This document shows positions 27-6,085 of a stretch of DNA of 6,085 bases, in pieces; position 1 is the first letter of the stretch; every line of letters starts with the position of its first letter. The notes under the pieces are model-generated. The model did no database searches, was not told the DNA's origin, and saw only the letters and a program-made list of their open reading frames with translations. Location: sequence record PX907427.1. The stretch is one strand, 5' to 3'. Source of the stretch: a phage. Position numbers and translations under genes: made by a program.

Positions 27-65
27 AGACTCTTGCTTCAACGAAACGAAGTTGGAGTCTTTTTT
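27..65 (+). terminator. Candidate intrinsic terminator downstream of gene H in the circular genome (TH-like): bipartite hairpin plus T-tract
   Basis: Seen in sequence: agactc (27-32) pairs with gagtct (55-60); inner stem caac (39-42) pairs with gttg (51-54); followed by ttttt (61-65). Stem is short and only moderately GC-rich, so strength is uncertain. Confidence 0.3.
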
Positions 66-434
66 ATGAAACCTGCTCACCGCCTTTTTCACCCTGTTCT
101 TGGCTCATGGTTGTTTAAGTGCCCCGTTTATGTTCGTTATGAGTCCCTTCATCACGGTCGCCTCATTAAGGTTCGTGCTGTTCGTGATCTTTCCCCTCGT
201 CAGCAGTTGATTGCCAATCCTAAAAATTGCTTTGATGTTGTCATCGCTGAGATTGACGTTACTCGTCTTTCTGTTACTTGGTATGATTTTGAAGCCGAAG
301 AGTATGCTGAGTGTGATTCCGGCACTATGGAGCTTCTTCTTTCTCAGGTAAATTCTGGCGAGGTTATTCGCTCATCTGAAGATCTGTTTGTTGATGTTGA
401 TGATATGGAATGGCTTTATGAAATTGCGGAGTAA
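66..434 (+). CDS. Hypothetical protein (ORF1) in the H-A intergenic region, 122 aa from ATG 66 (136 aa if ATG 24 is used); basic N-terminal half, acidic C-terminal half
   Basis: Open frame 24-434 in the ORF track. GGAG at 54-57 lies 8 nt upstream of ATG 66; ATG 24 has no SD. Codon third positions are strongly T-biased (cgt, gtt, gct, gat, ctt), matching the confirmed phage genes. No homolog recognised by eye. Confidence 0.5.
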   Translation: MKPAHRLFHPVLGSWLFKCPVYVRYESLHHGRLIKVRAVRDLSPRQQLIANPKNCFDVVIAEIDVTRLSVTWYDFEAEEYAECDSGTMELLLSQVNSGEVIRSSEDLFVDVDDMEWLYEIAE

Positions 435-437
435 GTC

Positions 438-527
438 GTGGAAACTGTTATCGGAAAATTTATTGCTCTGGCTGTTGTTGCTCTTATGCTGTATGGAATT
501 TCCCGTTTGATTCGGAGGTTCCCGTGA
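438..527 (+). CDS. Hypothetical small hydrophobic peptide (ORF2), 29 aa, GTG start: METVIGKFIALAVVALMLYGISRLIRRFP
   Basis: GTG 438 preceded by cGGAG (427-431) with a 6-nt spacer; one predicted transmembrane-like segment followed by a basic tail RLIRR; same frame as ORF1, separated from it only by TAA (432-434) plus one codon; its stop TGA (525-527) overlaps the ORF3 start. Short ORF, so chance occurrence is not excluded. Confidence 0.3.
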   Translation: METVIGKFIALAVVALMLYGISRLIRRFP

Positions 528-700
528 AATATTTTAGTTTGGTAGATGAACATTATGCTTACTGCCCTGATACAAGGATTTTGCACATTACTCGTAGTCG
601 TGTTTCTGACCCTCGGTATGAGCGTCGTTTTCTTACTGATGAGGAACATTTTGCACTTTTGGATTGGTTGAAAAATCGTCCAACTTACATTAATTCTTGA
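524..700 (+). CDS. Hypothetical protein (ORF3), 58 aa, GTG start: MKYFSLVDEHYAYCPDTRILHITRSRVSDPRYERRFLTDEEHFALLDWLKNRPTYINS
   Basis: GTG 524 preceded by GGAGG (514-518) with a 5-nt spacer; GTGA start/stop overlap with ORF2; T-biased third codon positions; absent from the supplied ORF track (below its length cutoff or because of the GTG start). Confidence 0.4.
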   Translation: MKYFSLVDEHYAYCPDTRILHITRSRVSDPRYERRFLTDEEHFALLDWLKNRPTYINS

Positions 701-726
701 CAGACCTTTAAAATACCCTCTATATT
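697..726 (+). promoter_or_regulatory. Candidate sigma70 promoter for gene A (pA-like): -35 TTGACA (697-702), 18-nt spacer, -10 TATATT (721-726)
   Basis: Perfect -35 hexamer and 5/6 match to the -10 consensus with 18-bp spacing, about 33 nt upstream of the A start codon; phiX174 has its pA promoter in the equivalent position (established knowledge). Confidence 0.4.
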
Positions 727-758: not shown

Positions 759-2243
759 ATGGCTACTGAAATCTTCTCTGATGTTGTTAAGTCTGTTTGG
801 TCGCACGCTACGGCTAAGCATGCTCATCTTCGCATGGCTGTTCAGGTTGATAATCGTAGCCGCCTCCTTTCTGACCTCGTTTATCAGTTGGAAAAACGCC
901 TTTCTGAAGAGACTCATTTGGATGATGAGACTCTTTCCGTCTATGAATCTCAGACTGCCCTTCTGGAAGACCATATGGCACTGGTTCGGAAGTGTGCTGC
1001 CCAACTTGATAATAGTAACACTATAGACCACCGTACCCCTTTGGATGCCGAATGTGTTTTTCTGTTTGAGATGATTTGCCCTGGTGTTCGCTACGGTAAA
1101 ACATTGAATTCTCTTTGGACTAAGTATGTCGCCCAGTGGCCTGAGAAGTTGATTCGTCAGGAGTTAGACATGGTTAAGCCTTTATCCTTTAAGGATGAGG
1201 TTGCTAAGTACATGGAGAAGATGCAGGAAAAAACACGCAAGAATCGCATGACTCAGAAAGTGATTAATGAGATGCGTATTGCTCACCAAAAAGGCTGGTT
1301 CTTCGTATTTGATACGTTGACACTTGCCGATGACCGTTTGCAGGCTTTTAATGAAAACCCCAATGCTCTCCGTGATTATTTTAGGACTGTTGGTCGAGCT
1401 GTTCTGCGCGCTGAAGGTCGTTCGGTTAAGGATTCCTACAATGACTGCTATCGCTATCTTTGTGTGCCGGAGTTTGGAGGTCAGCACGGCCGTCTTCATT
1501 GGCACGTTGTGCATATGGTGCGGACTCTTCCTTTGGGAAGTCATGACCCTAATTTCGGTCGCAAGGTACGTAATTATCGCCAGATTAACTCGTTCCGTGG
1601 CATGTGGCCTTATGGCTTCACGCAACCGATAGCTGTTCGCTATCAACATGACGCTTATTCTCGTAAAGGTTGGTTATGGCCTGTTGACAAAACAGGAAAA
1701 GCAATGCAGAGTAAGCCGTATCAGGCGGTCGCATGGTATGTGACCAAGTATGTAGCTAAGCAATCTGACCAGCGTCAGAAAGCTATTACCGAGAGACAAA
1801 AGAAATGCAAGAATCCATTAATGGCAATCTGTCTGAAGAAAGAGTTTCGGGTACGCAGCAGTCGGAAGCTCGGAATGGAGCTCCCGTCAATGGCTCACCT
1901 GAGCAACAAGGTACTTCTGGAACTGAGCCGAATCAGCTTCGATTCCAGTCCTCTGTATCAGATAGTGAAAGAGAACGCCAAAAAGCAATTGACCTTGAAC
2001 ATCGGCGCGCTGCCTTTGCACGTCATTTTGGATGTGCGCCCGGAAGTGAGAAGCATGTTGAAAACTATTCGTCGTTTGATGAAAAAGACACCCGAGTTCA
2101 ATTGGCAGAGTTCTATCGCTTCAATGACGGTCACTTTAAAAAATGGGGATATTTCTGATGAAGCACGTCAATACATTATTGATGCAGGAATTACGCCTAC
2201 TGATTTGCGAGCTAAAGCGACTCAGACTTTCGGCGGTAAGTGA
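759..2243 (+). CDS. A: Replication initiation protein A (HUH rolling-circle endonuclease), 494 aa
   Basis: Long blocks match my recollection of phiX174 protein A (WFFVFDTLTLADDRLQAFNENPNALRDYFR, PVDKTGKA, C-terminal GITPTDLRAKATQTFGGK). HUH motif H-W-H at 1497-1505; paired catalytic tyrosines in YVTKYV at 1737-1739 and 1749-1751. The gene contains the viral-strand origin. Confidence 0.95.
   Translation: MATEIFSDVVKSVWSHATAKHAHLRMAVQVDNRSRLLSDLVYQLEKRLSEETHLDDETLSVYESQTALLEDHMALVRKCAAQLDNSNTIDHRTPLDAECVFLFEMICPGVRYGKTLNSLWTKYVAQWPEKLIRQELDMVKPLSFKDEVAKYMEKMQEKTRKNRMTQKVINEMRIAHQKGWFFVFDTLTLADDRLQAFNENPNALRDYFRTVGRAVLRAEGRSVKDSYNDCYRYLCVPEFGGQHGRLHWHVVHMVRTLPLGSHDPNFGRKVRNYRQINSFRGMWPYGFTQPIAVRYQHDAYSRKGWLWPVDKTGKAMQSKPYQAVAWYVTKYVAKQSDQRQKAITERQKKCKNPLMAICLKKEFRVRSSRKLGMELPSMAHLSNKVLLELSRISFDSSPLYQIVKENAKKQLTLNIGALPLHVILDVRPEVRSMLKTIRRLMKKTPEFNWQSSIASMTVTLKNGDISDEARQYIIDAGITPTDLRAKATQTFGGK
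1002..1031 (+). other. Viral (+) strand origin of rolling-circle replication, 30-nt A-protein recognition/nick sequence CAACTTGATAATAGTAACACTATAGACCAC
   Basis: 28/30 identical to the phiX174 origin 30-mer CAACTTGATATTAATAACACTATAGACCAC as I recall it; expected nick between G1008 and A1009; located inside gene A as in phiX174. Confidence 0.9.
1221..2243 (+). CDS. A*: Protein A* (internal in-frame restart within gene A), 340 aa if ATG 1221 is used; ATG 1212 is an alternative
   Basis: In-frame ATGs at 1212 and 1221 sit where phiX174 A* starts (MKSRRG... in phiX, MQEKTRKNRM... here). GGAG at 1214-1217 is too close to ATG 1221 and GAGG 1197-1200 is 11 nt from ATG 1212, so the start is uncertain. 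Confidence 0.45.
   Translation: MQEKTRKNRMTQKVINEMRIAHQKGWFFVFDTLTLADDRLQAFNENPNALRDYFRTVGRAVLRAEGRSVKDSYNDCYRYLCVPEFGGQHGRLHWHVVHMVRTLPLGSHDPNFGRKVRNYRQINSFRGMWPYGFTQPIAVRYQHDAYSRKGWLWPVDKTGKAMQSKPYQAVAWYVTKYVAKQSDQRQKAITERQKKCKNPLMAICLKKEFRVRSSRKLGMELPSMAHLSNKVLLELSRISFDSSPLYQIVKENAKKQLTLNIGALPLHVILDVRPEVRSMLKTIRRLMKKTPEFNWQSSIASMTVTLKNGDISDEARQYIIDAGITPTDLRAKATQTFGGK
1805..2158 (+). CDS. B: Internal scaffolding protein B, 117 aa, encoded in an alternate frame inside gene A
   Basis: C-terminal region matches phiX174 B from memory (ERERQKAIDLE, AEFYRF, terminal GYF); position inside A as in phiX174. Confidence 0.9.
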   Translation: MQESINGNLSEERVSGTQQSEARNGAPVNGSPEQQGTSGTEPNQLRFQSSVSDSERERQKAIDLEHRRAAFARHFGCAPGSEKHVENYSSFDEKDTRVQLAEFYRFNDGHFKKWGYF

Positions 2244-2319
2244 CCCGGATTTTTCTCAGGAGAAAATTCATGCTGAGCTCGACTCGCTACTATGCAAGTT
2301 ATCGCGCCACTTTGACTAA
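2158..2319 (+). CDS. K: Protein K, 53 aa: MKHVNTLLMQELRLLICELKRLRLSAVSDPDFSQEKIHAELDSLLCKLSRHFD
   Basis: Not in the ORF track (too short). ATG 2158 shares its A with the B stop TGA (2156-2158); GGGGA 2145-2149 lies upstream; the ORF spans the A stop and the C start in the third frame; QELRLLICEL resembles QELLLLVYEL of phiX174 K (recollection). Confidence 0.75.
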   Translation: MKHVNTLLMQELRLLICELKRLRLSAVSDPDFSQEKIHAELDSLLCKLSRHFD

Positions 2320-2476
2320 GCAGTTGATGTTTCTTACGAAAGCTGACTTTACCAATGATGACGAGAAATGGCTTAATGCCTTTGGTAACCTTCTCCGTCA
2401 GTGGTTTCAGATTGAAGACTGGAAAGGCAATCACAAAAAATTGCTTGACGACCTGAAAAAACGTGATTATCTTTGA
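2270..2476 (+). CDS. C: Protein C (DNA maturation / stage III replication switch), 68 aa from ATG 2270
   Basis: Matches phiX174 C from memory (YFATFRHQLT...DEEKWLN in phiX versus YYASYRATLT...DDEKWLN here). The track's start at 2240 is a GTG overlapping the A stop; ATG 2270 has AGGAG (2258-2262) 7 nt upstream and is the more likely start. Confidence 0.85.
   Translation: MLSSTRYYASYRATLTKQLMFLTKADFTNDDEKWLNAFGNLLRQWFQIEDWKGNHKKLLDDLKKRDYL
2445..2473 (+). promoter_or_regulatory. Candidate sigma70 promoter for the late genes (pD-like): -35 TTGACG (2445-2450), 17-nt spacer, -10 TATCTT (2468-2473)
   Basis: Motif positions read from the sequence; lies inside the 3' end of gene C about 30 nt upstream of the D start, the position of pD in phiX174 (established knowledge). 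Confidence 0.35.
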
Positions 2477-2502: not shown

Positions 2503-2955
2503 ATGAATATTGTTTCTGATGTTAATTACGCTACTTCTGTTGCTGCTCTTCGTATGTTGCAGGCTAGTGCTGTTCTGGATATTACTGAGGAAGATTTTGA
2601 CTTCCTGACTGGTGATAAGATTTGGATTGCTACCGACCGTAACCGTGCGCGTCGTTGTGTTGAGGCTTGTGTTTATGGAACGCTGGACTTTGTTGGATAT
2701 CCTCGCTTTCCTGCTCCTGTTGAGTTTATTGCTGCCGTCATTGCTTATTATGTTCATCCCGTCAATGTACAGACAGCATGCCTCGTTATGGAAGGCGCGG
2801 AGTTTAGCGAAAACATTATCAATGGCGTCGAGCGTCCGGTTAATGCCGCTGAGCTCTTCGCCTACACCCTGCGTATTAAGGCAGGATTCAAAGAAACTGT
2901 AATGGATGCCGAGGAAAATGCTCGTCAGAAATTACGTGCTAATGGACTGAAGTGA
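2503..2955 (+). CDS. D: External scaffolding protein D, 150 aa
   Basis: Very high identity to phiX174 D from memory (ARRCVEACVYGTLDFVGYPRFPAPVEFIAAVIAYYVHPVN is identical). AAGGAG (2491-2496) lies 6 nt upstream of ATG 2503. The track's start at 2473 is a TTG upstream extension. Confidence 0.95.
   Translation: MNIVSDVNYATSVAALRMLQASAVLDITEEDFDFLTGDKIWIATDRNRARRCVEACVYGTLDFVGYPRFPAPVEFIAAVIAYYVHPVNVQTACLVMEGAEFSENIINGVERPVNAAELFAYTLRIKAGFKETVMDAEENARQKLRANGLK
2675..2902 (+). CDS. E: Lysis protein E (MraY inhibitor), 75 aa, encoded in the +1 frame inside gene D
   Basis: N-terminal transmembrane domain MERWTLLDILAFLLLLSLLLPSLLIMFIPS is nearly identical to phiX174 E (MVRWTLWDTLAFLLLLSLLLPSLLIMFIPS, recollection), including the conserved Pro in LLLPSLL. 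GAGG (2662-2665) lies 9 nt upstream of ATG 2675. Confidence 0.8.
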   Translation: MERWTLLDILAFLLLLSLLLPSLLIMFIPSMYRQHASLWKARSLAKTLSMASSVRLMPLSSSPTPCVLRQDSKKL

Positions 2956-2956
2956 T

Positions 2957-3031
2957 ATGAAAAAATCTCGTCGTTCTCCATCTCGTCGCAAAGGTGCCCG
3001 CCTTTGGTATGTAGGCGGTTCTCAGTTTTAA
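2957..3031 (+). CDS. J: DNA-binding protein J, 24 aa: MKKSRRSPSRRKGARLWYVGGSQF
   Basis: Not in the ORF track. ATG 2957 follows the D stop (TGATATG); highly basic; C-terminus ARLWYVGG.QF matches phiX174 J (GARLWYVGGQQF, recollection). The 24-aa length fits alpha3-like rather than phiX174 (38 aa). Confidence 0.9.
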   Translation: MKKSRRSPSRRKGARLWYVGGSQF

Positions 3032-3033
3032 TC

Positions 3034-3057
3034 ATGGGCCTTCGGGCCCTTTAAGGA
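3034..3057 (+). terminator. J-F intergenic hairpin module (GGGCC-TTCG-GGCCC) followed by TTT and the F SD; candidate weak terminator or mRNA-stabilising stem-loop
   Basis: Perfect 5-bp GC stem (3036-3040 with 3045-3049) around a TTCG loop; the 24-nt module atgggccttcgggccctttaagga is repeated exactly at 4364-4387. Confidence 0.5.
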
Positions 3058-3064
3058 AAATTAA

Positions 3065-4360
3065 ATGTCTAATGTGCAAACCTCCGCAGAACGTGAAATT
3101 GTCGATCTCTCCCATCTTGCTTTTGACTGTGGCATGATTGGTCGTTTGAAAACCGTTTCTTGGACCCCTGTTATTGCTGGTGACTCTTTTGAGATGGATG
3201 CCGTTGGTGTACTTCGTCTTTCTCCGCTTCGTCGCGGTCTGGCGATTGACTCTAAGGTTGATTTCTTCACCTTCTATATTCCGCATCGTCACGTTTATGG
3301 TGACCAGTGGATTCAGTTTATGCGTGATGGTATTGATGCAAGTCCTCTGCCTTCTGTTACTTGTAGCCGTTACCCTGACCATGCTGGTTATGTAGGTACT
3401 ATTGTTCCTACGAATAGCCGTATTCCGAAGTTCTTACATCAGAGCTATCTGAATATTTACAATAACTATTTCCGTGCTCCGTGGATGCCTGAGCGCACTG
3501 AGCAGAACCCTTCCAATCTTAATGAGGATGATGCTCGTTATGGCTTCCGTTGCTGCCATCTTAAAAACATTTGGTCTGCCCCTCTGCCTCCAGAGACTAA
3601 ACTGGTTGAGCAAATGGGTATTAAAAGCAATTCCATTGATATTATGGGCCTACAAGCCGCTTATGCGCAGCTTCACACTGAGCAAGAGCGTACTTACTTT
3701 ATGCAGCGTTACCGTGATGTTATCTCCAGCTTTGGCGGTTCAACCTCTTATGATGCCGATAACCGACCGTTGCTTGTTATGCACACCGACTTCTGGGCTT
3801 CCGGTTACGACGTTGATGGTACTGACCAATCTTCCCTTGGACAGTTCTCTGGTCGAGTCCAGCAGACGTTTAAACACTCAGTGCCGCGATTCTTCGTGCC
3901 TGAGCATGGTGTCATGATGACTTTGGCTCTGATTCGCTTCCCGCCTATCAGTCCGTTGGAGCACCATTATCTTGTTGGTAAGTCTCAGTTAACCTATACC
4001 GACCTTGCTGGCGACCCGGCCCTGATTGGTAACTTGCCTCCTCGCGAGATTAGTTATCATGACCTGTTCCGTGATGGTCGTTCTGGCATTAAGATTAAAG
4101 TTGCTGAGTCTATTTGGTATCGTACTCATCCTGACTACGTTAACTTTAAGTATTATGATTTGCAGGGATTCCCATTCCTTGATGATGCGCCTGGTACGTC
4201 TACTGGTGATAATCTTCAGGAGGCTATTCTTGTTCGTCATCAGGACTATGATGCTTGTTTCCAGTCTCAGCAGTTGTCACAGTGGAATAAACAGGCTCGC
4301 TATAACGTTAGTGTTTATCGCCATATGCCTACTGTTCGCGATTCCATTATGACCTCTTAA
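3065..4360 (+). CDS. F: Major capsid protein F, 431 aa
   Basis: Strong match to phiX174 F from memory ([28 protein letters not shown]...FTFY.PHRHVYG). AAGGA (3053-3057) lies 7 nt upstream of ATG 3065. Confidence 0.97.
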
Positions 4361-4363
4361 TTT

Positions 4364-4387
4364 ATGGGCCTTCGGGCCCTTTAAGGA
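4364..4387 (+). terminator. F-G intergenic hairpin module, second exact copy of the 24-nt GGGCC-TTCG-GGCCC element
   Basis: Stem 4366-4370 pairs with 4375-4379, loop TTCG; identical to 3034-3057; followed by the G SD AAGGA (4383-4387) and ATG 4395. Confidence 0.5.
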
Positions 4388-4394
4388 TTTATCT

Positions 4395-4958
4395 ATGTAT
4401 CAGAATTTTGTTACTAAGCACGATACCGCTATTCAGACCTCTCGCTTCTCTGTTACTGGCAATATCACTCCTGTTGCCCCTACTGGTAATATTCCTATTA
4501 TCAATGGTGGTAGCATTACCGCTGAGCATGCTGTTGTTAGTCTTTACGCTAATATGAATGTTGGTACCTCTTCTGATGGTTCTTTCATTGTTGCTATGAA
4601 GGTTGATACCTCTCCGGCTGACCCTAACTGCGTTATCTCTGCTGGTGTTAACCTTAGTTTTGCTGGCACTTCGTACCCGATTGTTGGTATTGTTCGTTTT
4701 GAGTCTGCTTCTGAGCAGCCCACATCTATTGCTGGTAGTCAGATTGAACATTACCCGATTGAAATGTCTGTTGGTTCCGGTGGTGTTTGTTCTGCTCGTG
4801 ATTGTGCTACTGTTGATATTCATCCTCGCACTTTCGGCAATAATGTTTTTGTTGGTGTGATTTGTTCTAGTGCTAAATGGACCTCCGGTCGTGTGCTTGG
4901 TACTATCGCGACTACTCAGGTTATTCATGAATACCAAGTTCTTCAGCCGCTTAAATAA
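4395..4958 (+). CDS. G: Major spike protein G, 187 aa
   Basis: Position after F and conserved blocks versus phiX174 G from memory (VRFES, PRT.GNNV.VG, C-terminal LQPLK). Confidence 0.95.
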
Positions 4959-5092: not shown

Positions 5093-6085
5093 ATGTTAGG
5101 TGCTGTTGTTGGTGGTATTGCCTCAGCCTTAGCTGGTGGTGCCGCTTCAAAATTATTCGGAGGCTCTCAGCGTGGAGTTTCTGTTATGCAGCAAGGTGCC
5201 GAGTCTGCCGGATTGACTAACGGTGGCGGTGCCATTTCTATGGATAATGACCAAGGTATTCAGTCTGCTATTCAAGGCTCGAATGTTCCTCCTGCTGGTC
5301 AGCTTCCTGAGTCTCAGAATTCTGGTGTTATGGCTGATGCTGGTAATATGCTTCGCAATGCTGGAAAGTCCTTGCTTGACGGAACTATTCAGGCTGGCTC
5401 TGATAAAGTTAAACAAGCCCTTATTGATAAGTTGATTGGAGGTAATGATGCCAAAGATCGAGGAAAAGCCACCCGTGATTACTTGGCTGCGGCCTTCCCT
5501 GAGCTCAACCCATGGGAACGTGCTGGAGCTGGTGCTTCCACTGCCGGGTTAGAGTCCTCTGCTCAGAATCAGCAGAAAGAGATGTTGAAGATGCAATTGG
5601 ATAATCAGAAAGATATTGCAAAAATGCAGATGGATAATAATTTGCAGATTGCTGGTATTCAGTCTGCCACCTCTCGTCAAAATACAAAGGATTCTGTTTA
5701 TGCCCAGAATGAGATGCTTCAGTATAATCAACGTGAGTCGCAGGCACGCGTTGCGTCTATCCTCGCCAACACTGACCTTACGACTAAACAAGCCACCCAT
5801 GAAATTATGAGGATGGCCCTTACCCGCGCTCAGGAGACTGGTCAGCATTTGACTAACTCTCAGATTATGGCTTTGGAGAAAAAGGTTTATGCAGAAATTG
5901 GCAAAATTCATCAAGATACTCAAAATTCTCGCTATGGTAGCTCTCAAGTTACTGCCGCAGCGAAAGACGTTACGAATATGATTACTGATGCCTCTTCAGG
6001 CCTTGCTGATTGGGCTTCTCAGCAGTGGAATTCGTTCTTTAAGGATGGCAAGTCCAACGGTATTTCTTTTAATACTAGAAAATAA
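5093..6085 (+). CDS. H: Minor spike / DNA pilot protein H, 330 aa
   Basis: N-terminal glycine-rich hydrophobic segment GGIASALAGGA.SKLFGG and central block KDTRDYLAAAFPELN.WERAGA...IAGIQSATSRQNTKD.VYAQNEML match phiX174 H from memory. AAGGAG (5079-5084) lies 8 nt upstream of ATG 5093. Stop TAA is the last 3 nt of the window. Confidence 0.95.
   Translation: MLGAVVGGIASALAGGAASKLFGGSQRGVSVMQQGAESAGLTNGGGAISMDNDQGIQSAIQGSNVPPAGQLPESQNSGVMADAGNMLRNAGKSLLDGTIQAGSDKVKQALIDKLIGGNDAKDRGKATRDYLAAAFPELNPWERAGAGASTAGLESSAQNQQKEMLKMQLDNQKDIAKMQMDNNLQIAGIQSATSRQNTKDSVYAQNEMLQYNQRESQARVASILANTDLTTKQATHEIMRMALTRAQETGQHLTNSQIMALEKKVYAEIGKIHQDTQNSRYGSSQVTAAAKDVTNMITDASSGLADWASQQWNSFFKDGKSNGISFNTRK

Follow-up and report, generated by a model that had tools for sequence, protein, structure and literature searches.

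A conserved GTGA stop/start overlap joins two small genes between H and A in an alpha3-like microvirus genome and its relatives

Both the conservation of the junction in related phages and the pattern of substitution on either side of it indicate that the GTGA overlap between ORF2 and ORF3 is, at the level of sequence, an ordinary compact arrangement joining two small conserved coding genes. Taking all of the evidence jointly, we regard ORF2 and ORF3 as genuine genes of a three-gene cassette, and consider it probable rather than certain that they are read from one mRNA and coupled by termination-reinitiation at the GTGA.

The window, i.e. the whole 6085-nt stretch of DNA that was analysed, is a complete alpha3-like microvirus genome (Microviridae, Bullavirinae, Alphatrevirus), since the ORF map gave the A-B-K-C-D-E-J-F-G-H order on the plus strand together with the genome size and the identity to the alpha3 group that define Alphatrevirus (Table 1). 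Over positions 1–760 the window is 96% identical with alpha3 and 80–94% identical with NC3, Lilleven, St-1, ID62, WA13/45, NC35, ID21, phiK, NC28, NC29 and ID32, and the annotated relatives have the same gene layout. NC29 has a C–D gap of approximately 233 nt (its positions 2480–2712) compared with 26 nt in the window, and therefore a larger genome of 6259 nt. ORF2 and ORF3 are located in the 758-nt gap between genes H and A, which has been treated as intergenic; the H–A gap of phiX174 is 63–64 nt (PMC8310164).

Table 1. Position, strand and, for genes, selection (pooled Nei-Gojobori dN/dS over 14 non-redundant genomes) of the features of the window
Feature	Position (nt)	Strand	dN/dS	Details
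Intrinsic-terminator-like hairpin and U-run	stem 28-59, U-run 60-65	+		Terminator scan; directly after H
ORF1	66-434	+	0.18	122 aa; first gene of cassette
ORF2 SD GGAG	428-431	+		In last ORF1 codons, 6 nt upstream of ORF2 start
ORF2	438-527	+	0.38	GTG 438-440 to TGA 525-527; 29 aa
ORF3 SD GGAGG	514-518	+		5-nt spacer to GTG 524; read from sequence
GTGA stop/start overlap	524-527	+		ORF3 start GTG 524-526, ORF2 stop TGA 525-527
ORF3	524-700	+	0.079	GTG 524-526 to TGA 698-700; 58 aa
Predicted gene A promoter pA, sigma-70-type	697-726	+		TTGACA 697-702, 18-nt spacer, TATATT 721-726
Gene A	759-2243	+	0.05	ORF map
Gene B	1805-2158	+		ORF map
Gene K	ends 2319	+		ORF map
Gene C	2270-2476	+	0.05	ORF map
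Gene D	2503-2955	+	0.11	ORF map
Gene E	inside D	+		ORF map
Gene J	2957-3031	+	0.16	ORF map
Gene F	3065-4360	+	0.22	ORF map
Gene G	4395-4958	+	0.55	ORF map
Gene H	5093-6085	+	0.15	ORF map

The positions that the initial annotation had assigned to the ORF2 stop, the ORF3 start and the GGAGG motif were all correct when checked against the sequence, and the motif does sit, as had been proposed, inside the ORF2 codons cgg-agg, which are codons 26 and 27 (CGG 513–515 and AGG 516–518, encoding R26-R27). The GTG at 524 is the earliest possible start following a stop in the ORF3 frame, and ORF3 itself, said to be absent from the list of open reading frames, is present in the mechanical ORF list. In a record of the alpha3 H gene from the 1980s (M25640), RBSs are annotated at the equivalents of window positions 53–57, 427–430 and 513–518, and early authors had therefore noticed these signals. 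The further claim that such an arrangement is unlikely by chance stood in part. Counting any pair in which an ORF of 25 aa or more is joined by an (A/G)TGA overlap to a following ORF of 50 aa or more, with an SD core 4–15 nt upstream, we found a comparable junction in seven of 2000 dinucleotide shuffles of positions 1–758 and in 17 of 500 whole-genome shuffles, so that the arrangement is uncommon, but its rarity is not overwhelming. The decisive evidence for the ORF2/ORF3 junction is comparative and not this chance test.

For the comparison we used 29 sequences, comprising the window, 15 GenBank genomes and 13 contigs from public assemblies. ORF2 (28–30 aa) and ORF3 are intact in every one of them, the latter with 58 aa except in one contig (56 aa) and in phiK (70 aa). 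The 4-nt stop/start overlap is present in 28 of the 29, as GTGA in 20 and as ATGA in eight, and GTGA was also found at the ORF2/ORF3 junction of three further IMG/VR contigs; in the one exception, ID32, the junction reads TGA-a-ATG, with a 1-nt spacer in place of the overlap. Two versions of the junction, which differ by indels as well as substitutions, account for the overlapping set, namely cggaggttcccGTGA (n=20) and taggactctgagATGA or taggagtttaaaATGA (n=8). Indels alter the C-terminus of ORF2 among the relatives, with the adjacency of ORF2 and ORF3 retained, and ORF3 starts with GTG or ATG, always at the same codon. A purine-rich SD lies 5–10 nt upstream of the ORF3 start in all 29 sequences; this is GGAGG in 19 of the 20 GTG-type genomes (GAGG in phiK) and AGGA or AGGAG at the equivalent place in the ATG-type genomes, i.e. 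the stronger SD accompanies the GTG start and the weaker SD the ATG start. Conservation of both overlap and SD in relatives, on which the initial annotation had suggested its proposal be judged, was thus confirmed, and its reading of ORF2 and ORF3 as real phage genes, packed in the way expected of a coupled pair, is supported by this conservation together with the coding-type substitutions described below.

Two departures were observed at the level of single sequences. A GTG start of ORF2 is peculiar to the window, the start being ATG in the other 28 of 29 sequences (31 of 32 including the IMG/VR contigs), and this single A-to-G change should weaken initiation of ORF2 and, if the two genes are coupled, the output of ORF3. 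In addition, a 761-nt ENA contig (L045) has a 26-nt deletion, equivalent to window positions 510–535, that takes away the SD, the GTGA and ORF3 codons 1–4 and fuses ORF2 residues 1–23 in frame to ORF3 to give a 78-aa product. Since the coverage of this contig is just 2.2×, the fusion may be artefactual; a genuine fusion would hint that the ORF2 and ORF3 proteins act together.

The substitution pattern indicates that ORF3 is under strong, frame-specific purifying selection, comparable with that on genes A, C and D (Table 1). When the same DNA is read in the five other frames, four have dN/dS values of 0.96–2.4 and hold stop codons, and the fifth, the minus-strand frame that shares third positions with ORF3, has 0.20, also with stops; over 24 haplotypes the ORF3 value was 0.14 (bootstrap CI 0.08–0.25). 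For ORF1, four of the five other frames give 1.2–2.1 and the minus-strand frame sharing third positions 0.28, and its variable columns are distributed 43/35/99 over the three codon positions. The ORF3 protein is 88–98% identical in all 15 relatives by tblastn, the DNA of the region being 80–96% identical, and the third codon positions of ORF1–3 are T-rich (0.47–0.59, compared with 0.38–0.68 in the known genes). Gene callers returned the same trio of 122, 29–30 and 58 aa on most of the metagenomic contigs, with ORF1 predicted on all of them, the 30-aa gene missed on two (L020 and L023) and ORF3 called from a later start on one (L029). The competing ORFs at 388–510 (+), 546–671 (+) and 416–649 (−) were rejected, as they have stops in relatives or dN/dS values of approximately 1 or more.

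These data bear directly on whether 438–700 might be non-coding, with the ORFs and their overlap being chance features. Such a reading would agree with the existing records, 13 of 15 related GenBank genome records annotating nothing between H and A, and with the failure of ORF1–3 to match any Pfam, PHROG, NCBIfam or PADLOC family. Against it are the frame-specific dN/dS values of 0.08–0.18 for ORF3 and ORF1, reading frames without interruption in every relative although the DNA has diverged by 20%, the small number of shuffles (just seven of 2000) that reproduce the arrangement, and a confident AlphaFold2 model for ORF1. The comparative data in practice refute it, and we regard it as scarcely credible.

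The coding case is weaker for ORF2 than for ORF3. Over all haplotypes its dN/dS was 0.34 with a wide bootstrap CI (0.11–0.97), its dS is 0.14 compared with 0.28–0.68 elsewhere, and its third-position diversity is 0.09 compared with 0.15–0.34 in other genes; because synonymous divergence is so unusually low, the conservation of ORF2 may partly act at the nucleic-acid level. One might accordingly ask if ORF2 makes no functional protein and 438–527 is a translated leader or nucleic-acid element that delivers ribosomes to ORF3 or regulates it, which would suit an ORF of only 29 codons with a low dS and, in the window, a weak GTG start, and in which a local hairpin can pair codons 19–22 with the SD and start of ORF3. 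However, among 21 haplotypes the variable columns of ORF2 codons 2–24 are distributed 11/0/9 over the three codon positions, i.e. there is not a single second-position change in 23 codons, and the first-position changes are all synonymous or conservative (I/V, L/F, A/S/T and R/C), a pattern that points to selection on a hydrophobic helix as its source. The start is also ATG in 28 of 29 sequences with an SD upstream, and the local hairpin did not survive the RNAalifold, covariation and shuffle tests. We therefore rate a leader without a functional product as improbable.

The same hairpin (492–503/514–526, −9 to −10 kcal/mol) was considered as an RBS-hiding structure of the atpHA or MS2 type, which upstream translation would open, and rejected on three grounds. 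Its energy is ordinary (z = −1.0), with 34 of 200 shuffles folding as well; RNAalifold failed to recover it; and compensatory changes are absent from all 12 of its pairs, five to seven of which are broken in the ATG-type genomes.

ORF1, ORF2 and ORF3 are closely packed and make up a cassette of three genes, flanked by the terminator of H and the promoter of gene A. Folding energies of the strong hairpin directly after H, which we presume to be T_H, are −14.4 kcal/mol for the window and −17.9 kcal/mol for alpha3 (z = −3.7 and −5.9, respectively), and −16.7 kcal/mol for ID32. The window hairpin is weaker than that of alpha3 because of a U·U mismatch in its stem, U34 lying opposite U53, a position at which alpha3 has A53 and thus a fully paired 12-bp stem. 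The SD of ORF1 (GGAG, 54–57) is located in the 3′ arm of this hairpin and its ATG directly follows the U-run; expression of the cassette may therefore be low, as the SD is buried in the terminator stem. The stop codon of ORF1 (TAA, 432–434) lies 3 nt before the start of ORF2. At the other end, the predicted pA is the best promoter-like site of the genome (11 of 12 matches) and is conserved in the alignment, and the ORF3 stop lies inside its −35 hexamer. In a consensus scan of the sequence, nothing resembling a promoter or a terminator was found between 66 and 697.

Individual relatives vary at both ends of the cassette. In phiK, TTGACA has changed to TTGGCA, which abolishes the ORF3 stop and accounts for its 70-aa ORF3, and in NC35 a 29-nt deletion (equivalent to 704–732) removes the spacer and −10 element of the putative pA, with gene A starting at 730. 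ORF1 has its full 122 aa in 14 of 16 GenBank-type genomes, and 1-nt deletions shift its frame in St-1 (near window position 230, leaving 94 aa) and in the alpha3 record X60322 (near 194, leaving 47 aa). The latter, from 1992, is probably a sequencing error, as ORF1 is intact in the resequenced alpha3 genome DQ085810. The St-1 frameshift is either a sequencing error or a laboratory loss, and suggests an accessory role for ORF1 that is dispensable in the laboratory. Three metagenomic contigs (L026–L028) carry ORF1 with a 32-residue N-terminal extension, 154 aa in total. Elsewhere in the window an identical 24-nt GC-rich hairpin element, ATGGGCCTTCGGGCCCTTTAAGGA, occurs at 3034–3057 after J and at 4364–4387 after F, a repetition for which the chance expectation is none; we presume the two copies to be the terminators of J and F, to which the SD (AAGGA) of the next gene is attached.

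Given the 3-nt gap between ORF1 and ORF2, the 4-nt overlap between ORF2 and ORF3 and the position of each SD inside the gene upstream, we infer that ORF1–3 are read as a chain from a single mRNA, which would most likely arise by read-through of a leaky terminator after H. A ribosome ending ORF2 at the TGA would be held by the adjacent upstream GGAGG and would restart on the overlapping GTG, so that the output of ORF3 would follow the translation of ORF2. On the strength of the conserved arrangement and published precedent, termination-reinitiation of this kind is the most likely form of coupling: overlapping gene pairs have been tested with reporters, and strict coupling was observed for 13 of the 14 pairs, while four of the five E. 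coli pairs were coupled (PMC6728339). The main alternative accepts the genes as real but takes the overlap for a by-product of compaction, with ORF3 initiated de novo by a free 30S subunit on its own SD. GGAGG with a 5-nt spacer is a near-ideal E. coli RBS, strong enough for independent initiation, microvirus genomes are compact throughout, ORF3 is intact in ID32 although stop and start do not overlap there, and among the five overlapping E. coli pairs of Huber et al. one was uncoupled (PMC6728339). On the other hand, indels and a GTG/ATG switch have left the overlap in place in 28 of 29 sequences, and most of the E. coli 4-nt overlaps tested were coupled (PMC6728339). The pairing of a weak start with a strong SD, and the reverse, fits tuned reinitiation and equally tuned de novo initiation. 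Overall, we consider independent initiation unlikely but still to be reckoned with, and favour reinitiation at the GTGA.

Stop/start overlaps are well known in phiX174, where they occur at B-K, A-C (ATGA), C-D and D-J (bioRxiv 10.1101/2020.06.10.143693). The ORF2/ORF3 junction is like these in being a tandem co-directional overlap of 1–4 nt in which the RBS of the second gene lies within the first, in the same subfamily and on the same strand, and further overlaps of the window itself are TGATG at B/K and a GTGA where gene A ends. It differs in that the phiX174 overlaps join known genes, whereas the junction in the window joins two uncharacterized genes in a region absent from phiX174 and G4, and in that ORF3 starts with GTG and not ATG. 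The second GTGA of the window (2240–2243), in which GTG overlaps the gene A stop TGA (2241–2243), opens a 78-aa version of gene C from a GTG at 2240, ten codons before the ATG annotated at 2270, which has a strong AGGAG SD. This GTGA is conserved in 16 of 16 genomes, a conservation that is uninformative because the same region also encodes K. The ORF2/ORF3 junction further resembles E. coli operon pairs (Huber et al. 2019, PMC6728339, who cite trpB-trpA) in its 4-nt ATGA-type overlap, in having the SD in the upstream gene and in being a pair, probably co-transcribed, that is read in an E. coli host. Dependence on upstream translation was measured for the operon pairs and is predicted for ORF2/ORF3, and most of these phage genomes have GTGA in place of the ATGA of the E. 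coli pairs.

The closest annotated counterpart is found in Lilleven (MK629527), in which QBZ71502–QBZ71504 are the orthologues of ORF1–3 at the same coordinates and with the same 4-nt overlap; its ORF3 orthologue is 88–90% identical, and its ORF2 starts with ATG compared with GTG in the window. This is the only record that annotates all three, each as a CDS for a hypothetical protein from automatic annotation, and the Lilleven paper does not discuss them (PMC7552041). The metagenomic record MG945254 has two misc_features labelled ‘similar to hypothetical protein’, one of which is ORF1 and the other in a different frame, and the 13 records with nothing annotated between H and A include RefSeq alpha3, St-1 and phiK. 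We found no mention of ORF1–3 in the literature searched; one may exist in the original alpha3 genome paper or in Rokyta et al. 2006.

The predicted ORF2 peptide, METVIGKFIALAVVALMLYGISRLIRRFP, is hydrophobic, with 29 aa, a mass of 3.3 kDa and a pI of 10.9. Its residues 3–21 form the best 19-residue window, with a mean Kyte–Doolittle value of 2.15, and its C-terminus, RLIRR, is basic; by simple hydropathy, ORF2 probably spans the inner membrane once. The N-terminal half of ORF1 (14 kDa) is basic and the C-terminal half acidic, and its AlphaFold2 model (pLDDT 90.8, pTM 0.83) had, its own orthologue aside, no significant fold match in the PDB or BFVD. ORF3 is predicted to be a soluble 58-aa protein with four β-strands and a C-terminal helix (AlphaFold2 pLDDT 76.5).

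No significant family was found for ORF1–3 in Pfam, PHROGs, NCBIfam or PADLOC; ORF2 alone had matches, to PHROG families with E values of 0.026 or worse, and a sequence search of the PDB gave no match. Word-indexed searches with ORF3 and ORF1 returned only relatives with 70–97% identity, nearly all on contigs of approximately 6 kb or shorter fragments, and an ORF3 HMMER profile run against 1.8 billion representatives recovered its own cluster and one HA-repeat protein (P0030). An assignment of ORF3 to the HA domain (PF03457) was rejected, as there is no Pfam match and the link to P0030 covers residues 37–58 (E = 6e-6); at 22 residues this match is too short to carry any assignment of function. 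Among known domains, ORF3 was also compared with the N-terminal part of the winged-helix DNA-binding domains of the OmpR/ToxR type; its assignment to the OmpR/PhoB-type domain, which would call for all of the approximately 100 aa, including recognition helix and wing, and for a Trans_reg_C match in Pfam, was rejected. The DNA of the cassette had no match in 5426 E. coli genomes, and ORF1 had none in plasmids. As far as the databases searched extend, the cassette is confined to alpha3-like phages, with no homologue elsewhere. The proteins of ORF1–3 are most likely accessory factors at or near the inner membrane and not essential replication or assembly proteins.

More speculatively, and with considerable doubt on our part, ORF1-ORF2-ORF3 may constitute an accessory module that is specific to Alphatrevirus and has been overlooked for decades in the classic model phages alpha3, St-1 and phiK. 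In such a module the ORF2 membrane peptide would work with ORF3, ORF1 would be a protein of unprecedented fold, and the role would lie in host takeover, superinfection exclusion or counter-defence; if true, this would explain the approximately 700 nt that these genomes have beyond phiX174 and G4.

Alpha3-like phages are textbook models for the assembly of ssDNA viruses and for experimental evolution, and 12% of their genome is treated as empty by RefSeq and most GenBank records. The overlap by itself is an ordinary case of compact phage gene expression; with three genes in this region under purifying selection, the gene count is corrected from 11 to 14, and the reading of ‘intergenic’ substitutions in evolution experiments changes if the region holds genes. 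The cassette also offers three small orphan proteins for study, one of which, ORF1, has a confident predicted fold with no known analogue. The wider point is that a region held to be non-coding in classic model phages contains a conserved three-gene orphan cassette.
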